Part shown: piece after piece, positions 11,701-61,098 of the stretch
Position numbering within the stretch: the stretch's first letter is position 1
How the letters are laid out: each line of letters begins with the position of its first letter
DNA from: Escherichia coli
GTDB lineage: Bacteria > Pseudomonadota > Gammaproteobacteria > Enterobacterales > Enterobacteriaceae
Assembly (NCBI RefSeq): GCF_050920415.1
Contig: NZ_CP169309.1
Length of the DNA: 64,000 nt
Direction: 5' to 3' (one strand)
The notes under the pieces: generated by a model
The model's database searches: none
Seen by the model: the letters and a program-made list of their open reading frames with translations, nothing else
What the model was told of the DNA's origin: nothing
Program-made: the position numbers and the translations under genes

Positions 11701-11741
11701 CTTTAGCTTAAAAATCGCTTTAATAACAATAAATTAAAAGT

Positions 11742-11757
11742 TGGCACAGAAAATGCT
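11742..11757 (+). promoter_or_regulatory. sigma54 (-24/-12) promoter for the hyc operon: TGGCAC-agaaaa-TGCT
   Basis: GG-N10-GC spacing exactly as consensus; about 37 bp upstream of the hycA start. Confidence 0.8.
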
Positions 11758-12255: not shown

Positions 12256-12379
12256 GCTGAGGCTTTGCCCGTTTTGCAGGCGTTACGCCTGTTTGGGGAT
12301 GGGCGTGTCGATGAGTGTCGAAAATGACATTTCATCGGCATGTTTTCGTCAAAAATGACAATCACCTGAGGAATGCCTG

Positions 12380-12991: not shown

Positions 12992-14814
12992 GCGCAATTT
13001 CCCTGATCAATAGCGGCGTGGCGTGGTTTGTTGCCGCCGCTGTTCTGGCATTTCTCTTTTCTTTTCAAAAGGCGTTAAGCGGCTGGATTGCCGGAATTGG
13101 CGGCGCGGTGGGTAGCCTGTATACGGCAGCCGCAGGCTTCACTGTGCTGACTGGCGCGGTTGGCGTGAGCGGCGCGTTGTCGCTGGTAAGCTACAATGTG
13201 CAAATCTCTCCGCTTAATGCGATTTGGCTGATAACCCTCGGCCTGTGCGGTCTGTTTGTCAGCCTCTACAACATTGACTGGCATCGCCATGCGCAGGTGA
13301 AGTGTAACGGCTTGCAGATCAATATGTTGATGGCTGCTGCCGTCTGTGCCGTCATTGCCAGCAATCTGGGCATGTTCGTAGTAATGGCAGAAATCATGGC
13401 CCTGTGTGCGGTGTTCCTCACCAGCAACAGCAAAGAGGGCAAACTGTGGTTTGTGCTGGGGCGTCTTGGCACTTTGCTGCTGGCGATTGCTTGCTGGCTG
13501 CTGTGGCAACGTTACGGCACGCTGGATCTGCGCCTGCTGGATATGCGCATGCAACAGCTGCCGCTTGGTTCCGATATCTGGCTGCTCGGTGTGATTGGTT
13601 TTGGCCTGCTGGCCGGGATTATCCCGCTGCACGGCTGGGTGCCGCAGGCACATGCTAACGCCTCTGCGCCAGCTGCGGCGCTGTTTTCCACGGTGGTGAT
13701 GAAAATTGGCCTGCTGGGTATTTTAACCCTGTCTCTGCTGGGCGGTAATGCGCCGCTGTGGTGGGGAATTGCACTTCTGGTACTCGGCATGATCACCGCG
13801 TTCGTCGGCGGTCTGTATGCGCTGATGGAGCACAACATTCAGCGTTTGCTGGCTTACCACACTCTGGAAAATATCGGCATCATCCTGCTGGGGCTGGGCG
13901 CTGGCGTAACGGGTATCGCGCTTGAACAACCGGCGCTGATTGCCCTTGGCCTGGTCGGTGGTCTGTACCATCTGCTTAACCATAGCCTGTTCAAGAGCGT
14001 ACTGTTCCTCGGGGCTGGGAGCGTCTGGTTCCGTACCGGTCATCGCGATATCGAAAAACTCGGCGGTATTGGCAAAAAAATGCCGGTTATCTCCATCGCC
14101 ATGTTGGTCGGTCTGATGGCAATGGCTGCGCTGCCACCGCTGAACGGTTTTGCCGGGGAATGGGTTATCTATCAATCCTTCTTCAAACTGAGCAATAGTG
14201 GCGCGTTTGTTGCTCGTCTTCTCGGGCCGCTGCTCGCCGTGGGGCTGGCAATTACCGGTGCGCTGGCAGTGATGTGTATGGCGAAAGTTTATGGCGTTAC
14301 TTTCCTTGGCGCGCCGCGTACCAAAGAAGCCGAAAACGCCACCTGTGCGCCGCTCCTGATGAGCGTAAGCGTAGTGGCACTGGCGATTTGCTGCGTGATT
14401 GGCGGTGTTGCTGCGCCGTGGCTGCTGCCGATGTTGTCTGCAGCCGTACCTCTGCCGCTGGAGCCTGCTAATACAACCGTTTCTCAACCAATGATCACGT
14501 TGCTGCTGATTGCCTGCCCACTTCTGCCATTCATCATTATGGCGATTTGCAAAGGCGACCGTCTGCCGTCGCGTTCCCGCGGCGCTGCCTGGGTATGTGG
14601 CTACGACCATGAAAAATCAATGGTGATTACCGCTCACGGTTTTGCCATGCCGGTGAAACAGGCATTTGCGCCAGTGCTGAAACTGCGCAAATGGCTGAAT
14701 CCGGTGTCGCTGGTACCAGGCTGGCAGTGCGAGGGGAGTGCGTTGCTGTTCCGCCGGATGGCGCTGGTTGAACTGGCGGTGCTGGTGGTGATTATTGTTT
14801 CACGAGGAGCCTGA
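12988..14814 (+). CDS. hycC: Hydrogenase-3 membrane subunit (NuoL-like antiporter module)
   Basis: 608-aa polytopic membrane ORF. Confidence 0.95.
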   Translation: MSAISLINSGVAWFVAAAVLAFLFSFQKALSGWIAGIGGAVGSLYTAAAGFTVLTGAVGVSGALSLVSYNVQISPLNAIWLITLGLCGLFVSLYNIDWHRHAQVKCNGLQINMLMAAAVCAVIASNLGMFVVMAEIMALCAVFLTSNSKEGKLWFVLGRLGTLLLAIACWLLWQRYGTLDLRLLDMRMQQLPLGSDIWLLGVIGFGLLAGIIPLHGWVPQAHANASAPAAALFSTVVMKIGLLGILTLSLLGGNAPLWWGIALLVLGMITAFVGGLYALMEHNIQRLLAYHTLENIGIILLGLGAGVTGIALEQPALIALGLVGGLYHLLNHSLFKSVLFLGAGSVWFRTGHRDIEKLGGIGKKMPVISIAMLVGLMAMAALPPLNGFAGEWVIYQSFFKLSNSGAFVARLLGPLLAVGLAITGALAVMCMAKVYGVTFLGAPRTKEAENATCAPLLMSVSVVALAICCVIGGVAAPWLLPMLSAAVPLPLEPANTTVSQPMITLLLIACPLLPFIIMAICKGDRLPSRSRGAAWVCGYDHEKSMVITAHGFAMPVKQAFAPVLKLRKWLNPVSLVPGWQCEGSALLFRRMALVELAVLVVIIVSRGA

Positions 14815-15757: not shown

Positions 15758-17467
15758 ATGTCTGAAGAAAAATTAGGTCAACATTATCTCGCCGCGCTGA
15801 ATGAGGCATTTCCGGGCGTCGTGCTGGACCACGCCTGGCAGACCAAAGATCAGCTGACTGTCACCGTAAAGGTGAACTATCTGCCGGAAGTGGTGGAGTT
15901 CCTCTACTACAAGCAGGGGGGCTGGCTGTCGGTGCTGTTTGGTAACGACGAACGCAAACTGAATGGTCATTACGCCGTTTATTACGTGCTGTCGATGGAG
16001 AAGGGCACCAAGTGTTGGATTACGGTTCGCGTCGAAGTTGACGCCAACAAACCAGAATATCCGTCCGTGACGCCGCGCGTTCCGGCGGCGGTGTGGGGCG
16101 AGCGTGAAGTGCGCGATATGTACGGTTTGATTCCGGTAGGGCTTCCGGATGAACGCCGTCTGGTGCTGCCGGATGACTGGCCGGATGAACTCTACCCGCT
16201 GCGTAAAGACAGCATGGATTATCGTCAACGTCCGGCACCAACTACTGATGCTGAAACCTACGAGTTCATCAACGAACTGGGCGACAAGAAAAACAACGTC
16301 GTGCCGATTGGTCCACTGCACGTCACTTCTGACGAACCGGGCCACTTCCGTCTGTTCGTTGATGGCGAAAACATTATCGACGCCGACTACCGCCTGTTCT
16401 ACGTCCATCGCGGCATGGAAAAACTGGCGGAAACCCGCATGGGTTACAACGAAGTGACCTTCCTCTCTGACCGAGTTTGTGGGATCTGCGGCTTTGCCCA
16501 CAGCACCGCTTACACCACATCGGTGGAAAACGCGATGGGTATTCAGGTGCCAGAACGTGCGCAGATGATTCGCGCCATTTTGCTGGAAGTGGAACGCCTG
16601 CACTCGCATCTGCTCAACCTTGGACTTGCCTGCCACTTCACTGGCTTTGACTCCGGTTTTATGCAGTTCTTCCGCGTGCGTGAAACCTCCATGAAAATGG
16701 CGGAGATCCTTACCGGTGCGCGTAAAACTTACGGTCTGAACCTGATCGGCGGGATTCGTCGCGATCTGCTGAAAGATGACATGATCCAGACCCGTCAACT
16801 GGCGCAGCAGATGCGTCGTGAAGTGCAGGAGCTGGTGGATGTGCTGCTGAGCACACCGAACATGGAACAGCGCACTGTCGGCATTGGTCGTCTGGACCCG
16901 GAAATTGCCCGCGACTTCAGTAACGTCGGCCCGATGGTCCGCGCCAGCGGTCACGCTCGCGATACCCGCGCTGATCACCCGTTTGTTGGTTATGGCCTGC
17001 TGCCAATGGAAGTCCACAGCGAGCAGGGCTGCGACGTGATTTCCCGTCTGAAAGTGCGTATCAACGAAGTCTATACCGCGCTGAACATGATTGACTACGG
17101 TCTGGATAACCTGCCGGGCGGCCCGCTGATGGTGGAAGGCTTTACCTACATTCCGCACCGTTTTGCGCTGGGCTTTGCCGAAGCGCCGCGTGGCGATGAT
17201 ATCCACTGGAGCATGACCGGCGACAACCAGAAGCTGTACCGCTGGCGCTGCCGTGCCGCGACCTACGCGAACTGGCCGACCCTGCGCTACATGCTGCGCG
17301 GCAACACCGTTTCTGATGCGCCGCTGATTATCGGTAGCCTGGACCCTTGCTACTCCTGTACTGACCGCATGACCGTGGTCGATGTACGTAAGAAGAAGAG
17401 CAAAGTGGTGCCGTACAAAGAACTTGAGCGCTACAGCATTGAGCGTAAAAACTCGCCGCTGAAATAA
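15758..17467 (+). CDS. hycE: Hydrogenase-3 [NiFe] large subunit
   Basis: 569 aa from MSEEKLGQ; N-terminal RxCGxC Ni-Fe ligand motif and C-terminal DPCYSCTDR; the C-terminal extension is the HycI cleavage substrate. Confidence 0.95.
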   Translation: MSEEKLGQHYLAALNEAFPGVVLDHAWQTKDQLTVTVKVNYLPEVVEFLYYKQGGWLSVLFGNDERKLNGHYAVYYVLSMEKGTKCWITVRVEVDANKPEYPSVTPRVPAAVWGEREVRDMYGLIPVGLPDERRLVLPDDWPDELYPLRKDSMDYRQRPAPTTDAETYEFINELGDKKNNVVPIGPLHVTSDEPGHFRLFVDGENIIDADYRLFYVHRGMEKLAETRMGYNEVTFLSDRVCGICGFAHSTAYTTSVENAMGIQVPERAQMIRAILLEVERLHSHLLNLGLACHFTGFDSGFMQFFRVRETSMKMAEILTGARKTYGLNLIGGIRRDLLKDDMIQTRQLAQQMRREVQELVDVLLSTPNMEQRTVGIGRLDPEIARDFSNVGPMVRASGHARDTRADHPFVGYGLLPMEVHSEQGCDVISRLKVRINEVYTALNMIDYGLDNLPGGPLMVEGFTYIPHRFALGFAEAPRGDDIHWSMTGDNQKLYRWRCRAATYANWPTLRYMLRGNTVSDAPLIIGSLDPCYSCTDRMTVVDVRKKKSKVVPYKELERYSIERKNSPLK

Positions 17468-19823: not shown

Positions 19824-20135
19824 ATGCACATCATTTCTAAAGCGCCATTTGAAGAGTCTGCGCGTAAATATCCTAACGACGCTCTGGCTCTACACTCATT
19901 GTATCGGGTTATTAAGGAAACGGATTTTTCTACGCCAGAAGAAATGCGAACGGCGTTTCCCAACCTCGACAATTTTAAATATCGCAATAAATGGTACGTT
20001 CTGGATGTAGGCGGGAACAATCTTAGGGTTATTGCCTACATAAACTTTGTTAATAAGCGGTTCTTTGTGAAGCACATAACGAATCATGCCGAGTATGACA
20101 AACTGACACGTTACTACAGAGAGAACAAAGAATGA
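19824..20135 (+). CDS. HigB-family type II toxin (RelE/ParE-superfamily mRNA interferase), accessory gene
   Basis: 103-aa ORF; FPNLDNFKY...VGGNNLRVIAY...HITNHAEYD pattern resembles HigB as I recall it; AAGGAAG Shine-Dalgarno; toxin-first order; 4-bp ATGA overlap with the downstream antitoxin. Confidence 0.75.
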   Translation: MHIISKAPFEESARKYPNDALALHSLYRVIKETDFSTPEEMRTAFPNLDNFKYRNKWYVLDVGGNNLRVIAYINFVNKRFFVKHITNHAEYDKLTRYYRENKE

Positions 20136-20551
20136 CTGCTAATGCTGCACGCGCTGTTAAAGCAACAAGAGAACTGGTCAATGCAGTCCCCTTTCTGGGA
20201 GGCAGTGACTCAGAAGATGATTATCGTGAAGCACTGGAACTGGTCGAATATTTGATTGAAGAAGATGACACCAATCCACTTATCGACTTTCTGGCGAGCC
20301 GTATTGCAGAATATGAAAACAACCACGAAAAGTTTGCAGAGTTCGATAAAGCCGTTGCAGCAATGCCGATTGGCGTGGCGTTACTTCGCACGCTGATTGA
20401 TCAACATAATCTGACCTATGCGGATTTGAAGAACGAAATCGGCTCTAAATCCCTGGTCAGTCAGATTTTGTCTGGACAAAGATCCCTGACGATATCCCAC
20501 ATTAAGGCACTTTCAGCCCGATTTGGCGTTAAGCCGGAATGGTTTCTTTGA
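20132..20551 (+). CDS. HigA-family antitoxin with C-terminal XRE-type helix-turn-helix
   Basis: 139-aa ORF; C-terminal SKSLVSQILSGQRSLTISHIKALSARFGV HTH; start overlaps toxin stop. Confidence 0.75.
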   Translation: MTANAARAVKATRELVNAVPFLGGSDSEDDYREALELVEYLIEEDDTNPLIDFLASRIAEYENNHEKFAEFDKAVAAMPIGVALLRTLIDQHNLTYADLKNEIGSKSLVSQILSGQRSLTISHIKALSARFGVKPEWFL

Positions 20552-23815: not shown

Positions 23816-24826
23816 ATGACGACGATGCTGGAAGTGGCGAAGCGCGCCGGGGTTTCAAAAGCGACCGTTTCCCGCGTGCTTTCAGGTAATGGCTACGTCA
23901 GCCAGGAGACTAAAGATCGCGTGTTTCAGGCGGTGGAAGAGAGCGGCTACCGCCCAAATTTGCTGGCGCGCAATCTGTCAGCGAAGAGTACCCAGACGCT
24001 AGGGCTGGTAGTGACCAACACGCTTTACCACGGCATTTATTTTAGTGAATTACTGTTTCATACCGCGAGAATGGCGGAAGAGAAAGGGCGTCAGCTGCTA
24101 TTGGCAGATGGCAAACATAGCGCCGAAGAAGAACGCCAGGCGATTCAGTATCTACTGGATCTGCGCTGCGACGCCATTATGATTTACCCGCGCTTTTTAA
24201 GCGTAGATGAGATTGATGACATCATTGACGCACACAATCAGCCGATAATGGTGCTCAATCGCCGCCTGCGCAAAAACAGCAGCCATAGTGTCTGGTGCGA
24301 TCATAAACAGACCAGCTTTAACGCCGTGGCAGAGTTGATAAACGCCGGACATCAGGAGATTGCTTTCCTTACCGGTTCGATGGATTCCCCCACCAGCATT
24401 GAACGCCTTGCCGGATATAAAGACGCGCTGGCGCAGCATGGTATTGCACTCAATGAAAAACTTATCGCTAACGGTAAATGGACGCCTGCCAGCGGGGCCG
24501 AAGGGGTAGAAACGTTGCTCGAACGTGGGGCTAAATTTAGCGCGTTAGTTGCCAGTAACGACGATATGGCGATAGGTGCGATGAAAGCGTTGCATGACCG
24601 TGGTGTAGCGGTGCCGGGGCAAGTGTCGGTTATTGGATTTGATGATATCGCAATTGCCCCCTACACCGTTCCGGCGCTCTCCAGCGTAAAAATTCCGGTG
24701 ACTGAGATGATTCAGGAAATAATTGGGCGGCTGATATTTATGCTCGATGGTGGTGCTTACTCACCGCCGAAAACCTTCAGCGGAAAACTAATCCGCCGCG
24801 ACTCACTCATTGCTCTTTCGCGATAA
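23816..24826 (+). CDS. ascG: LacI/GalR-family repressor of the asc operon
   Basis: 336 aa from MTTMLEVAKRAGVSKATVSRV (HTH); supplied ORF has a 22-aa upstream extension. Confidence 0.9.
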   Translation: MTTMLEVAKRAGVSKATVSRVLSGNGYVSQETKDRVFQAVEESGYRPNLLARNLSAKSTQTLGLVVTNTLYHGIYFSELLFHTARMAEEKGRQLLLADGKHSAEEERQAIQYLLDLRCDAIMIYPRFLSVDEIDDIIDAHNQPIMVLNRRLRKNSSHSVWCDHKQTSFNAVAELINAGHQEIAFLTGSMDSPTSIERLAGYKDALAQHGIALNEKLIANGKWTPASGAEGVETLLERGAKFSALVASNDDMAIGAMKALHDRGVAVPGQVSVIGFDDIAIAPYTVPALSSVKIPVTEMIQEIIGRLIFMLDGGAYSPPKTFSGKLIRRDSLIALSR

Positions 24827-24839
24827 ACATTGTCATCAC

Positions 24840-24876
24840 ATGTCATCGTCACTAGTGTCGATGACATCGTTTTTTC
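24840..24876 (+). terminator. Rho-independent terminator after ascG
   Basis: ATGTCATCG-tcactagtgt-CGATGACAT hairpin followed by CGTTTTTT. Confidence 0.75.
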
Positions 24877-24975
24877 TGCATTGCAGAATTTAATTTCTTT
24901 AAATAACAATGAATTAAAAATTGGCATGATTTGTGAATGTATCGGCAGCATTAACTGTCATTGCTGGAGAATTTG

Positions 24976-25503
24976 ATGAACCGTTTCATCATTGCTGACG
25001 CGAGTAAATGTATTGGTTGTCGTACCTGTGAAGTGGCGTGCGTGGTTTCTCATCAGGAGAATCAGGACTGTGCATCGCTGACCCCGGAAACTTTTTTACC
25101 GCGAATCCATGTCATTAAAGGTGTGAACATTTCCACGGCGACAGTCTGCCGTCAGTGTGAAGATGCACCGTGCGCTAACGTCTGCCCGAATGGTGCTATC
25201 AGCCGTGATAAAGGGTTTGTTCATGTCATGCAGGAACGTTGCATTGGTTGCAAAACCTGCGTTGTGGCTTGCCCGTATGGTGCGATGGAAGTGGTAGTGC
25301 GTCCGGTGATTCGCAACAGCGGCGCAGGGCTTAACGTACGCGCTGACAAAGCCGAAGCTAATAAATGCGACCTCTGTAACCATCGTGAAGACGGCCCGGC
25401 GTGTATGGCTGCTTGCCCGACCCATGCGCTGATTTGTGTCGATCGTAATAAACTTGAACAACTGAGCGCAGAAAAACGCCGCCGCACGGCGCTGATGTTC
25501 TAA
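24976..25503 (+). CDS. hydN: Electron transport protein HydN (4Fe-4S ferredoxin-type)
   Basis: 175 aa from [15 protein letters not shown]; four CxxCxxCxxxCP-type clusters. Confidence 0.93.
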
Positions 25504-25655
25504 AAATCTTACAGAACTGTTCTGGCATCAAAGGAATTCCCGGAAATATTCGTAGAATACGGAGCGGGCGGTATCGCCAACCTGTGACTACCGGATGCGA
25601 CGCGGTCGTGTCCGGCTGGGCGGGTTACGCAATTCATGATGGCGGGAATAACTCA

Positions 25656-27908
25656 ATGGCAAAAAACACATCTTGCGGTGTCCAACTGCGTATTCGTGGC
25701 AAAGTGCAGGGCGTCGGTTTTCGTCCCTTTGTCTGGCAACTGGCACAGCAATTAAATCTTCACGGCGATGTCTGTAATGACGGCGATGGCGTGGAAGTCC
25801 GGTTGCTGGAAGATCCGGAAATGTTTCTTGTTCAATTGCATCAGCACTGCCCGCCGCTGGCGCGTATTGATAGCGTCGAATGTGAGCAGTTTATCTGGAT
25901 GCAGCCGCCCACTGAGTTCACCATCCGCCAGAGCGCGGGCGGCGTCATGAATACGCAAATTGTTCCCGATGCCGCAACTTGCCCTGCCTGTCTTGCCGAA
26001 ATGAATACTCCAGGCGAACGGCGTTATCGTTATCCGTTTATCAACTGTACCCACTGCGGCCCGCGTTTCACCATTATTCGCGCGATGCCTTACGACCGTC
26101 CATTTACCGTGATGGCGGCGTTTCCGCTTTGTCCGGCCTGCGATAAAGAATATCGCGACCCGCTCGATCGTCGCTTCCACGCCCAGCCGGTGGCCTGCCC
26201 GGAGTGTGGCCCGCATCTTGAATGGCTAAGTCATGGTGAACATGCAGAACAAGAGGCGGCATTACAGGCAGCTATCGCACAGTTAAAAATGGGCAACATT
26301 GTCGCCATCAAAGGGATTGGCGGATTTCATCTCGCCTGCGATGCGCGTAACAGTAACGCGGTGGCGACACTTCGGGCACGCAAACATCGCCCGGCGAAAC
26401 CGCTGGCGGTCATGTTGCCAGTGACAGAAGATTTACCAGACGCTGCCCGTCAGTTGCTCACCACGCCCGCCGCGCCGATTGTGCTGGTGGATAAAAAATA
26501 TGTTCCGGAACTTTGTGACGATATCGCCCCTGGCCTTAACGAAGTCGGGGTGATGTTGCCTGCGAATCCGCTCCAGCATTTGCTGTTACAGGAACTGCAA
26601 TGCCCGCTGGTGATGACCTCCGGCAACCTGAGCGGTAAACCACCGGCTATCAGCAACGAACAGGCGCTGGAGGATTTGCAGGACATTGCCGACGGATTCT
26701 TGATTCATAACCGCGACATCGTGCAGCGGATGGATGATTCAGTGGTGCGCGAAAGTGGCGAAATGTTGCGCCGCTCGCGGGGGTATGTACCGGATGCGCT
26801 GGCTTTGCCTCCGGGCTTTAAAAATATTCCTCCTGTGTTGTGTCTCGGTGCGGATCTGAAAAATACCTTCTGTCTGGTGCGTGGTGAACAGGCGGTGTTG
26901 AGTCAACATTTGGGCGATTTAAGTGACGATGGCATTCAGATGCAGTGGCGCGAAGCGTTGCGTCTGATGCAAAACATCTACGATTTTACTCCACAGTTTG
27001 TGGTGCATGATGCGCATCCGGGCTATGTCTCCAGCCAGTGGGCGCGTGAGATGAATCTGCCGACGCAAACGGTGCTGCATCACCATGCCCACGCGGCGGC
27101 GTGTCTGGCAGAACATCACTGGCCGCTGGATGGCGGTGATGTCATTGCTTTGACGCTCGACGGTATTGGTATGGGCGAGAACGGCGCTTTATGGGGCGGC
27201 GAGTGCTTGCGGGTGAACTATCGCGAATGCCAGCACCTGGGCGGTTTGCCTGCGGTGGCGCTTGTTGGTGGCGATTTGGCTGCAAAGCAGCCGTGGCGTA
27301 ACCTGCTGGCGCAGTGCCTGCGCTTTGTGCCGGAGTGGCAGAATTACTCTGAAACGGCAAGTGTGCAACAGCAAAACTGGAGCGTGCTGGCGCGGGCCAT
27401 TGAGCGTGGAATCAATGCTCCGCTGGCATCATCGTGTGGGCGGTTGTTCGATGCCGTATCGGCTGCGCTGGGCTGTGCGCCAGCCACGTTAAGTTATGAA
27501 GGTGAAGCGGCTTGTGCTCTGGAGGCGCTCGCAGCTTCGTGCCACGGAGTGACGCATCCGGTGACGATGCCGCTGGTGGACAATCAACTGGATCTCGCCA
27601 CTTTCTGGCAGCAGTGGCTGAACTGGCAGGCTCCGGTTAATCAACGCGCGTGGGCGTTTCATGATGCACTGGCGCAGGGTTTTGCCGCGTTGATGCGTGA
27701 GCAGGCCACGATGTGCGGTATCACTACGCTGGTATTTAGCGGTGGGGTTATTCATAACCGTTTGCTGCGTGCACGTCTGGCGCATTATCTTGCTGATTTT
27801 ACGTTGCTCTTCCCGCAGAGTTTACCTGCGGGGGATGGCGGGTTGTCTCTGGGGCAGGGGGTTATTGTTGCGGCCCGTTGGGTGGCGGGTGAAGTCCAGA
27901 ACGGATAA
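25656..27908 (+). CDS. hypF: Carbamoyltransferase HypF ([NiFe]-hydrogenase maturation)
   Basis: 750 aa from [10 protein letters not shown]; acylphosphatase domain, two CxxC zinc-finger pairs, YrdC and Kae1-like domains. Confidence 0.95.
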
Positions 27909-60839: not shown

Positions 60840-61098
60840 CCCCTGATGGCAAATGTGGCATGAATATTGATGCGAGCAAATCGCCGGAATTTCCCATGAT
60901 ATAAGGGCTGAGAGCAAATCGAGAAAGTTGATATTTTTTTGTCATAGATAGCGAAAAAACGCCTGAATATTGTGGTTTCAGGCGAATAATGCAACAGAGT
61001 ATCAGTGTAGATCACCACAAAATATTTGCGTGATAAAAAGCTATTTGGCGGGAATTATTTCCCCTGCTGAAGTTGGTGAAATTTTGAAAAATAACCGG

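Follow-up and report, generated by a model that had tools for sequence, protein, structure and literature searches.

The hydN-hypF locus of Escherichia coli raises the question of whether a σ54 element with a good -24 half and a deviant -12 half can be the promoter of an operon of the formate regulon. An earlier note on this DNA had posed the matter as a choice between a non-canonical promoter and a promoter lying elsewhere. We are highly confident that the element at positions 24921-24937 is the σ54 (-24/-12) promoter of the hydN-hypF operon and that the operon belongs to the formate regulon. It is the σ54 promoter already documented for hydN-hypF; the observation made on this stretch is correct and the biology is known. 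The comparison of orthologous loci adds a possibly new detail, which is that hydN promoters never combine both consensus halves of the element.

The ascG-hydN intergenic region

The window, a 64,000-nucleotide stretch of E. coli chromosome, contains in order the hyp/hyc, ascFBG, hydN-hypF and norVW genes. A 401-bp query around the element matched all but one of the complete E. coli genomes searched (5,425 of 5,426), and ascG followed by hydN is annotated at the matching place. In an identical genome the annotated genes follow one another as hypDCBA, hycABCDEFGHI, a higB-like toxin pair, ascBF, ascG, hydN, hypF, norWV and norR. The pair, a toxin gene of the higB family with an antitoxin gene of the helix-turn-helix type, lies between hycI and ascB at approximately 19824-20551 of the window. 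To our knowledge, K-12 lacks this toxin/antitoxin pair in its gene order.

The ascG stop is at 24826 and the hydN ATG at 24976, leaving an intergenic region of 149 bp. The hydN-hypF transcription unit is found at 24976-27908 on the plus strand, with hydN at 24976-25503 and hypF at 25656-27908 according to the RefSeq annotation of the identical genome, and the two genes are co-transcribed (PMC11841067). The hydN start codon (ATG, 24976-24978, plus strand) is preceded by a GGAG Shine-Dalgarno sequence at 24966-24969, and the CTGGAGA block near the start shows almost no variation among orthologues. A 64-codon minus-strand open reading frame (24757-24951) that overlaps the intergenic region was dismissed; the region is poorly conserved and is wholly different in strains without ascG.

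The -24/-12 element

The σ54 core promoter, hydNp, has the sequence TTGGCATGATTTGTGAA at 24921-24937 on the plus strand, 39 bp 5' of the hydN ATG and exactly where the earlier note had placed its candidate. The GG at 24923-24924 corresponds to -25/-24 and the G at 24935 to -13. Relative to the consensus TGGCACG-N4-TTGCW, the -24 half is TGGCATG, a good match in a motif where C or T is common at the position that differs. Its TGGCAT (24922-24927), which the note had judged good and which we confirm, places the GG within TGGCAC/T, a criterion of σ54 (-24/-12) promoters. The -12 half is GTGAA instead of TTGCW, and departs from it twice, with G for T at -15 (24933) and A for C at -12 (24936). It had been described as GTG in place of TTGC, which is essentially right; the precise form is GTGA for TTGC. 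The GG-N10-G spacing and the G at -13 are retained, and the GC expected at -13/-12 is absent owing to the A at -12. Bound ChIP-seq sites without the GC amount to 9 of 133 (approximately 7%), and so hydNp is a deviation within the σ54 family and is not excluded from it.

A consensus search of the whole window with up to three mismatches gave 110 matches, compared with 138 ± 11 in shuffled sequences. Since matches to the consensus were no commoner than expected by chance, a weight matrix was used instead. The matrix was derived from the 135 σ54 ChIP-seq motifs of Bonocora et al. 2015 (PMC4591121), in sets of 133-134 sites from which hydN was omitted, the second version also omitting a near twin inside rplD. 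The five best matrix matches in the window, hypA, hycA, norV, OA04 and hycC, are all published ChIP-seq sites, which shows that the matrix works. Two of these strong matches are without known promoter function: the published intragenic site in hycC (IS31; 14198-14214, plus strand), which ends in GCT here and not in GCC, and the published site OA04 (GTGGCATGAATATTGAT; 60855-60871, plus strand).

With this matrix hydNp scores 11.6-12.6 bits and ranks 10-14 among the 127,968 positions of the window; its rank is 31 when the matrix is made from the 41 intergenic-sense sites alone. There are 16 window positions that score as high as hydNp, which corresponds to approximately 0.02 expected on the plus strand of the intergenic region. 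The only positions that are penalised are -15 (-3.3 bits) and -12 (-2.9 bits), and the score falls in the lower tail of bound sites. The transcription start is predicted to be at 24948 on the plus strand, 19 bp 3' of the motif centre, following the rule of PMC4591121.

Published σ54 binding and expression

The ChIP-seq, SELEX and expression data discussed here stem from K-12 and Salmonella, which are different strains from the source of the window. The K-12 hydN site, CTGGCATGATTTGTGAA, has the same 16-nt core as the element of our strain. It is the intergenic σ54 ChIP-seq peak OS26, with a fold above threshold (FAT) of 11, a predicted start 27 bp before the hydN start codon, and an EcoCyc status of experimentally confirmed (PMC4591121). 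Genomic SELEX performed in vitro with the σ54 holoenzyme alone detected a peak assigned to hydN-hypF (PMC8743547). The Salmonella hydN site (TGGCACGATTCGTGTA / TGGCACGATTCGTGTATA) was enriched 23-fold in ChIP-chip, and Salmonella hydN-hypF was 13-fold upregulated, in a σ54-dependent manner, with a constitutive activator supplied; the natural activator is named as FhlA in a table that cites Maier et al. 1996 (PMC3844500). A 2025 review states that formate-FhlA enhances hydN-hypF expression (PMC11841067). The reading of this region as a σ54-dependent hydN-hypF promoter, which the earlier note took from reports, is borne out by the OS26 peak, the EcoCyc entry, the SELEX peak, and the ChIP-chip enrichment and 13-fold dependence in Salmonella.

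The occupancy of the four FhlA promoters in K-12 is uneven, the FAT values being 201 for hypA, 91 for hycA, 41 for fdhF and 11 for hydN (PMC4591121). Among these four, hydN is the only one lacking the -12 C and also the one with the lowest occupancy. The hycA promoter (11741-11757, plus strand) is a σ54 promoter of the same FhlA/formate regulon and is bound in ChIP-seq, as is hydN. It differs in having a canonical -12 (AATGCT), a matrix score of approximately 18 bits compared with 12, and an approximately 8-fold higher occupancy (FAT 91 versus 11). The FhlA-dependent σ54 promoter of K-12 fdhF likewise differs from hydN in its canonical -12, GATGCA, and in its FAT of 41 compared with 11.

Other σ54 promoters share the departure from GC. 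The glnHp2 (TTTTCA), pspA and pspG (TTGTA) and ygeW (TTGTT) promoters resemble hydN in combining a perfect or near-perfect TGGCA with a non-GC -12, and all are bound in ChIP-seq. However, they keep the T at -15 and mostly have T in place of C, in contrast to hydN with A at -12 and G at -15. A closer likeness is the IS41 site in K-12 rplD (CTGGCATGATTCGTGAA), which differs from the K-12 hydN 17-mer by one spacer base. IS41 is bound in ChIP-seq and is therefore an independent case of a GTGAA -12 bound by σ54 in vivo, although, unlike hydN, it is intragenic, has a FAT of 1, and has no known enhancer or regulated transcript.

Search for another promoter

It is formally conceivable that the real hydN-hypF promoter, σ70-dependent or served by another σ54 site, lies elsewhere, and that the element is a non-productive σ54 binding site. 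Many σ54 ChIP sites are not known promoters (PMC4591121), and the near twin in rplD (IS41, CTGGCATGATTCGTGAA) is bound at a low level without known function. There is also a physiological argument. HypF is required by all hydrogenases, including those made without formate, and hence some FhlA-independent expression of hypF must exist. A crude σ70 and terminator scan of 24700-25100 gave one weak σ70-like match, at 24861-24889. However, this match is at the level of chance, one found compared with 0.8 expected. The matrix scan of the 600 bp upstream of hydN found no other credible σ54 site above 8.2 bits, the next best plus-strand match being one of 8.1 bits inside ascG. The EcoCyc listing of the hydN promoter as experimentally confirmed (PMC4591121) and the 13-fold σ54 dependence of the Salmonella operon (PMC3844500) also weigh against a promoter elsewhere, as does the position of the element, which in 80 species is at a fixed distance from the ATG and helically phased with a conserved enhancer-like palindrome. 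We consider a promoter elsewhere to be very improbable. The alternative posed at the outset is thereby divided: a non-canonical promoter with a conserved -12 stands, and a location elsewhere does not. With no other credible σ54 site and no above-chance σ70 site, there is no need to seek a hidden promoter.

A spacer of 152 bp (25504-25655), long for an operon, separates the hydN stop codon from hypF. Simple scans of this spacer, among them a crude one of 25380-25700, found no σ70-like promoter, credible σ54 site or terminator, and so give no support to an internal promoter.

Conservation of the element

The comparison covered orthologous hydN loci of 80 species, a single locus for each, in approximately twenty enterobacterial genera; with the window's own locus this makes 81 sequences. 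A σ54-type 17-mer is present in all 80 loci and starts 51-56 bp from the ATG. The invariant positions in the 81 sequences are T2, G3, G4, T11, T14, G15, A17 and the T that follows, and the columns of the spacer between enhancer and promoter vary freely and are essentially unconserved. The form TGGCA[C/T]G-N4-[A/G]TG[A/T]A is common to Escherichia, Salmonella, Citrobacter, Intestinirhabdus, Enterobacter, Lelliottia, Kosakonia, Cedecea and Huaxiibacter, and TGGCATGATTTGTGAA is the same in all six E. coli lineages compared, among them K-12, O157, Nissle and E24377A. The alignment indicates that the deviant -12 is real and has been kept across enteric genera, and that it is neither a local defect nor a peculiarity of one strain.

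The strain itself has an unusual intergenic region. The ascG-hydN intergenic allele is rare, being found with at least 99% identity in 2 of 5,426 genomes, and most genomes have 90-95% identity to it. The A at 24947, beside the predicted start, is a 1-bp insertion found in no other of the 81 orthologous sequences and in none of the six E. coli strains compared. Compared with K-12, position 1 of the 17-mer, which is weakly informative, shows a C to T change, and the remaining core promoter is unchanged.

The conservation bears on the least favored explanation, that hydNp is a chance resemblance within an A/T-rich intergenic region. The three-mismatch consensus is indeed no commoner in the window than in shuffled sequence. 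However, the matrix rank, ChIP-seq and SELEX are all contrary to it, and the key bases are invariant in the 81 sequences while the adjoining spacer columns vary. Conservation and published binding together refute a chance resemblance, to which we give practically no credence.

The upstream region

A probable FhlA enhancer is predicted at 24830-24867, without assigned strand. It is composed of a 24-bp palindrome, GTCATCGTCA-CTAG-TGTCGATGAC (24842-24865), which can be extended to ATGTCATCG/CGATGACAT (24840-24867), and an extra half-site-like sequence, TTGTCATCAC, at 24830-24839. The centre of the palindrome is approximately 94 bp 5' of the predicted start, within the range of approximately 70-150 bp for the enhancer of an AAA+ activator. 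In 52 of the 81 sequences the palindrome is perfect, and 74 show no more than one mismatch; 11 of the 28 columns of the block are invariant, and the adjacent spacer is unconserved. The distance from the palindrome to the GG of the -24 is approximately 70 bp in 50 loci and approximately 60 bp in 31; the computed values, 68.5-71.5 and 58.5-61.5 bp, are too low by half a base. The two classes are one helical turn apart, and a face-of-helix constraint is indicated, as would apply to a looping enhancer. In Nissle, E. albertii, Salmonella and Cedecea, for example, a gene other than ascG lies upstream and the palindrome is still present; it therefore belongs to hydN.

A CGTCA-N4-TGACG core is common to the hydN palindrome, the upstream region of K-12 fdhF (perfect) and the hycA-hycB spacer (one mismatch). 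In fdhF the perfect CGTCA-AAAC-TGACG is approximately 105 bp from the predicted start, so that the core is approximately one helical turn further out than the hydN palindrome. However, this motif is over-represented in coding sequence (23 matches compared with 7.8 in mononucleotide shuffles), and the shared core alone is therefore weak evidence. To the quoted FhlA consensus, CATTTCGTACGAAATG, the palindrome has a loose fit only, CAT-CGT ... ACG-ATG. The sequence TGTCGATGA is common to the hydN palindrome and the hyc-hyp enhancer region; when the hyc-hyp enhancer was searched with the whole 12-nt half-site of the palindrome, the only matches had three mismatches and lay outside the enhancer. 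The hycA enhancer is at a similar distance, approximately 90 bp 5' of the predicted start, but is composed of TCGAAATG/ACGAAAT-type motifs and not of the long GTCATCGTCA palindrome of hydN.

Within the window, two sequences away from hydN resemble the hydN/fdhF palindrome core. The sequence CGTCAAAAATGACA at 12347-12360, in the hycA-hycB spacer, is a candidate FhlA site. The perfect CGTCACTTCTGACG inside hycE (16321-16334) may be a chance occurrence, given the general excess of this motif in coding sequence.

Between the palindrome and the promoter there is a predicted IHF-like site, TAACAATGAATTA, at 24904-24916 on the plus strand, with one mismatch to WATCAANNNNTTR. It is moderately conserved among hydN orthologues. 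The site is part of an A/T-rich block, TTTAAATAACAATGAATTAAAAATTGGCA in hydN, that is nearly identical to TTTAATAACAATAAATTAAAAGTTGGCA of hycA, and the two promoters are alike in having this block and an IHF-like site before TTGGCA. Hopper et al. 1994 are said to have reported IHF binding at hyc.

The same region probably also contains the ascG terminator. The palindrome with the T-run that follows it (24840-24875) and a second, short hairpin, TTCTGCATTGCAGAA, that leads into a T-rich tail (a terminator-like site at 24874-24888, plus strand) are predicted to fold as two RNA hairpins with a free energy of -20.9 kcal/mol (z = -3.8). This structure would insulate hydN from read-through, and a single sequence may double as terminator and enhancer. 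The T-run after the palindrome is missing from most other genera. When both strands of 24700-25100 were compared with Rfam, the only two matches had E values of approximately 0.9 and were far under the gathering scores, and no known RNA element is present.

A mechanism for activation of hydN-hypF can be proposed from these features. RNA polymerase with σ54 would bind hydNp as a closed complex through the consensus -24 TGGCAT and the weakened -12; σ54 binding in vivo and in vitro, and σ54-dependent expression of the orthologous operon, are backed by the cited data and our analysis. Formate-activated FhlA would bind the conserved palindrome approximately 94 bp upstream of the start, and an IHF-type bend at approximately -38 would bring FhlA to the polymerase. 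Hydrolysis of ATP would then open hydNp approximately 12 bp downstream of the -12 element, at the predicted start. The alignment shows that the element is conserved at a fixed position and that the palindrome is conserved and helically phased.

The missing -12 C

One point against this explanation is that the -12 C, which is kept in 96% of σ54 promoters, is absent from hydNp; promoters without the C correlate with activator-independent transcription (Schaefer et al. 2015, PMC4551910). The orthologous promoters come in two flavours. In the first, found in 52 of the 81 sequences, a perfect TGGCA is combined with G[A/T] at -13/-12. In the second, found in the other 29, an imperfect -24 (TGGAAC, TGGCTC, TGGCGC or TGGCGT) is combined with a canonical ATGCA. 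The second flavour occurs in Klebsiella, Raoultella, Kluyvera, Trabulsiella, Superficieibacter, Pseudocitrobacter and Pluralibacter, the Klebsiella-type hydN promoter being TTGGAACGTATTATGCA. Its matrix scores are 15-19 bits, level with those of hycA or norV. Among the orthologues the scores of the -24 and -12 half-sites are inversely correlated (r = -0.87), and none of the 81 promoters has both consensus halves, TGGCA and GC, compared with 44 of 133 ChIP sites. Quick neighbour-joining trees indicate only two to three independent switches between the flavours, so that the association by itself is weak. Within the 52 sequences of the first flavour, A and T have replaced each other at -12 at least five times, and neither C nor G occurs there; at -15, A and G have replaced each other at least 10 times, and the consensus T does not occur.

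The weak -12 of hydNp appears to be a trait that selection has kept and not a defect, and it fits with the low σ54 occupancy of hydNp relative to the other formate-regulon promoters. A refinement of the preferred explanation, and not a replacement for it, is that hydNp is the real promoter and its weak -12 is functional: a loosened fork-junction lock, or a lower occupancy, would give a lower induced level, a small activator-independent basal level, or both, and HypF would be supplied while FhlA is inactive. This is possible, though we would not call it probable. It is favored by the repeated changes at -12 and -15 that avoid the consensus base, by the lack of any orthologue with both TGGCA and GC when a third of ChIP sites have them, and by hydN being the least occupied of the four FhlA promoters. 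On the other hand, the flavours have switched independently only two to three times in the quick trees, the 15-19 bits of the second flavour show that strength varies between levels, the pattern is partly accounted for by a simple binding threshold, and hydN goes unmentioned in the main text of the σ54 bypass study (Schaefer et al. 2015, PMC4551910). We put forward only tentatively that the missing -12 C is a selected and ancient property of hydNp that tunes occupancy or the tightness of the closed-complex lock, possibly with a low and partly FhlA-independent supply of HypF.

The comparative gain from this locus is modest. The promoter, the IHF-like site and the helically phased palindromic putative enhancer are conserved across some twenty enterobacterial genera, and the two halves of the hydN σ54 element co-vary. 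The effect of the -12 sequence on the occupancy and leakiness of σ54 promoters has so far been addressed mainly with engineered glnAp2 variants. If the co-variation reflects selection, then hydNp would offer a case from nature in which to study how the -12 sequence sets both.
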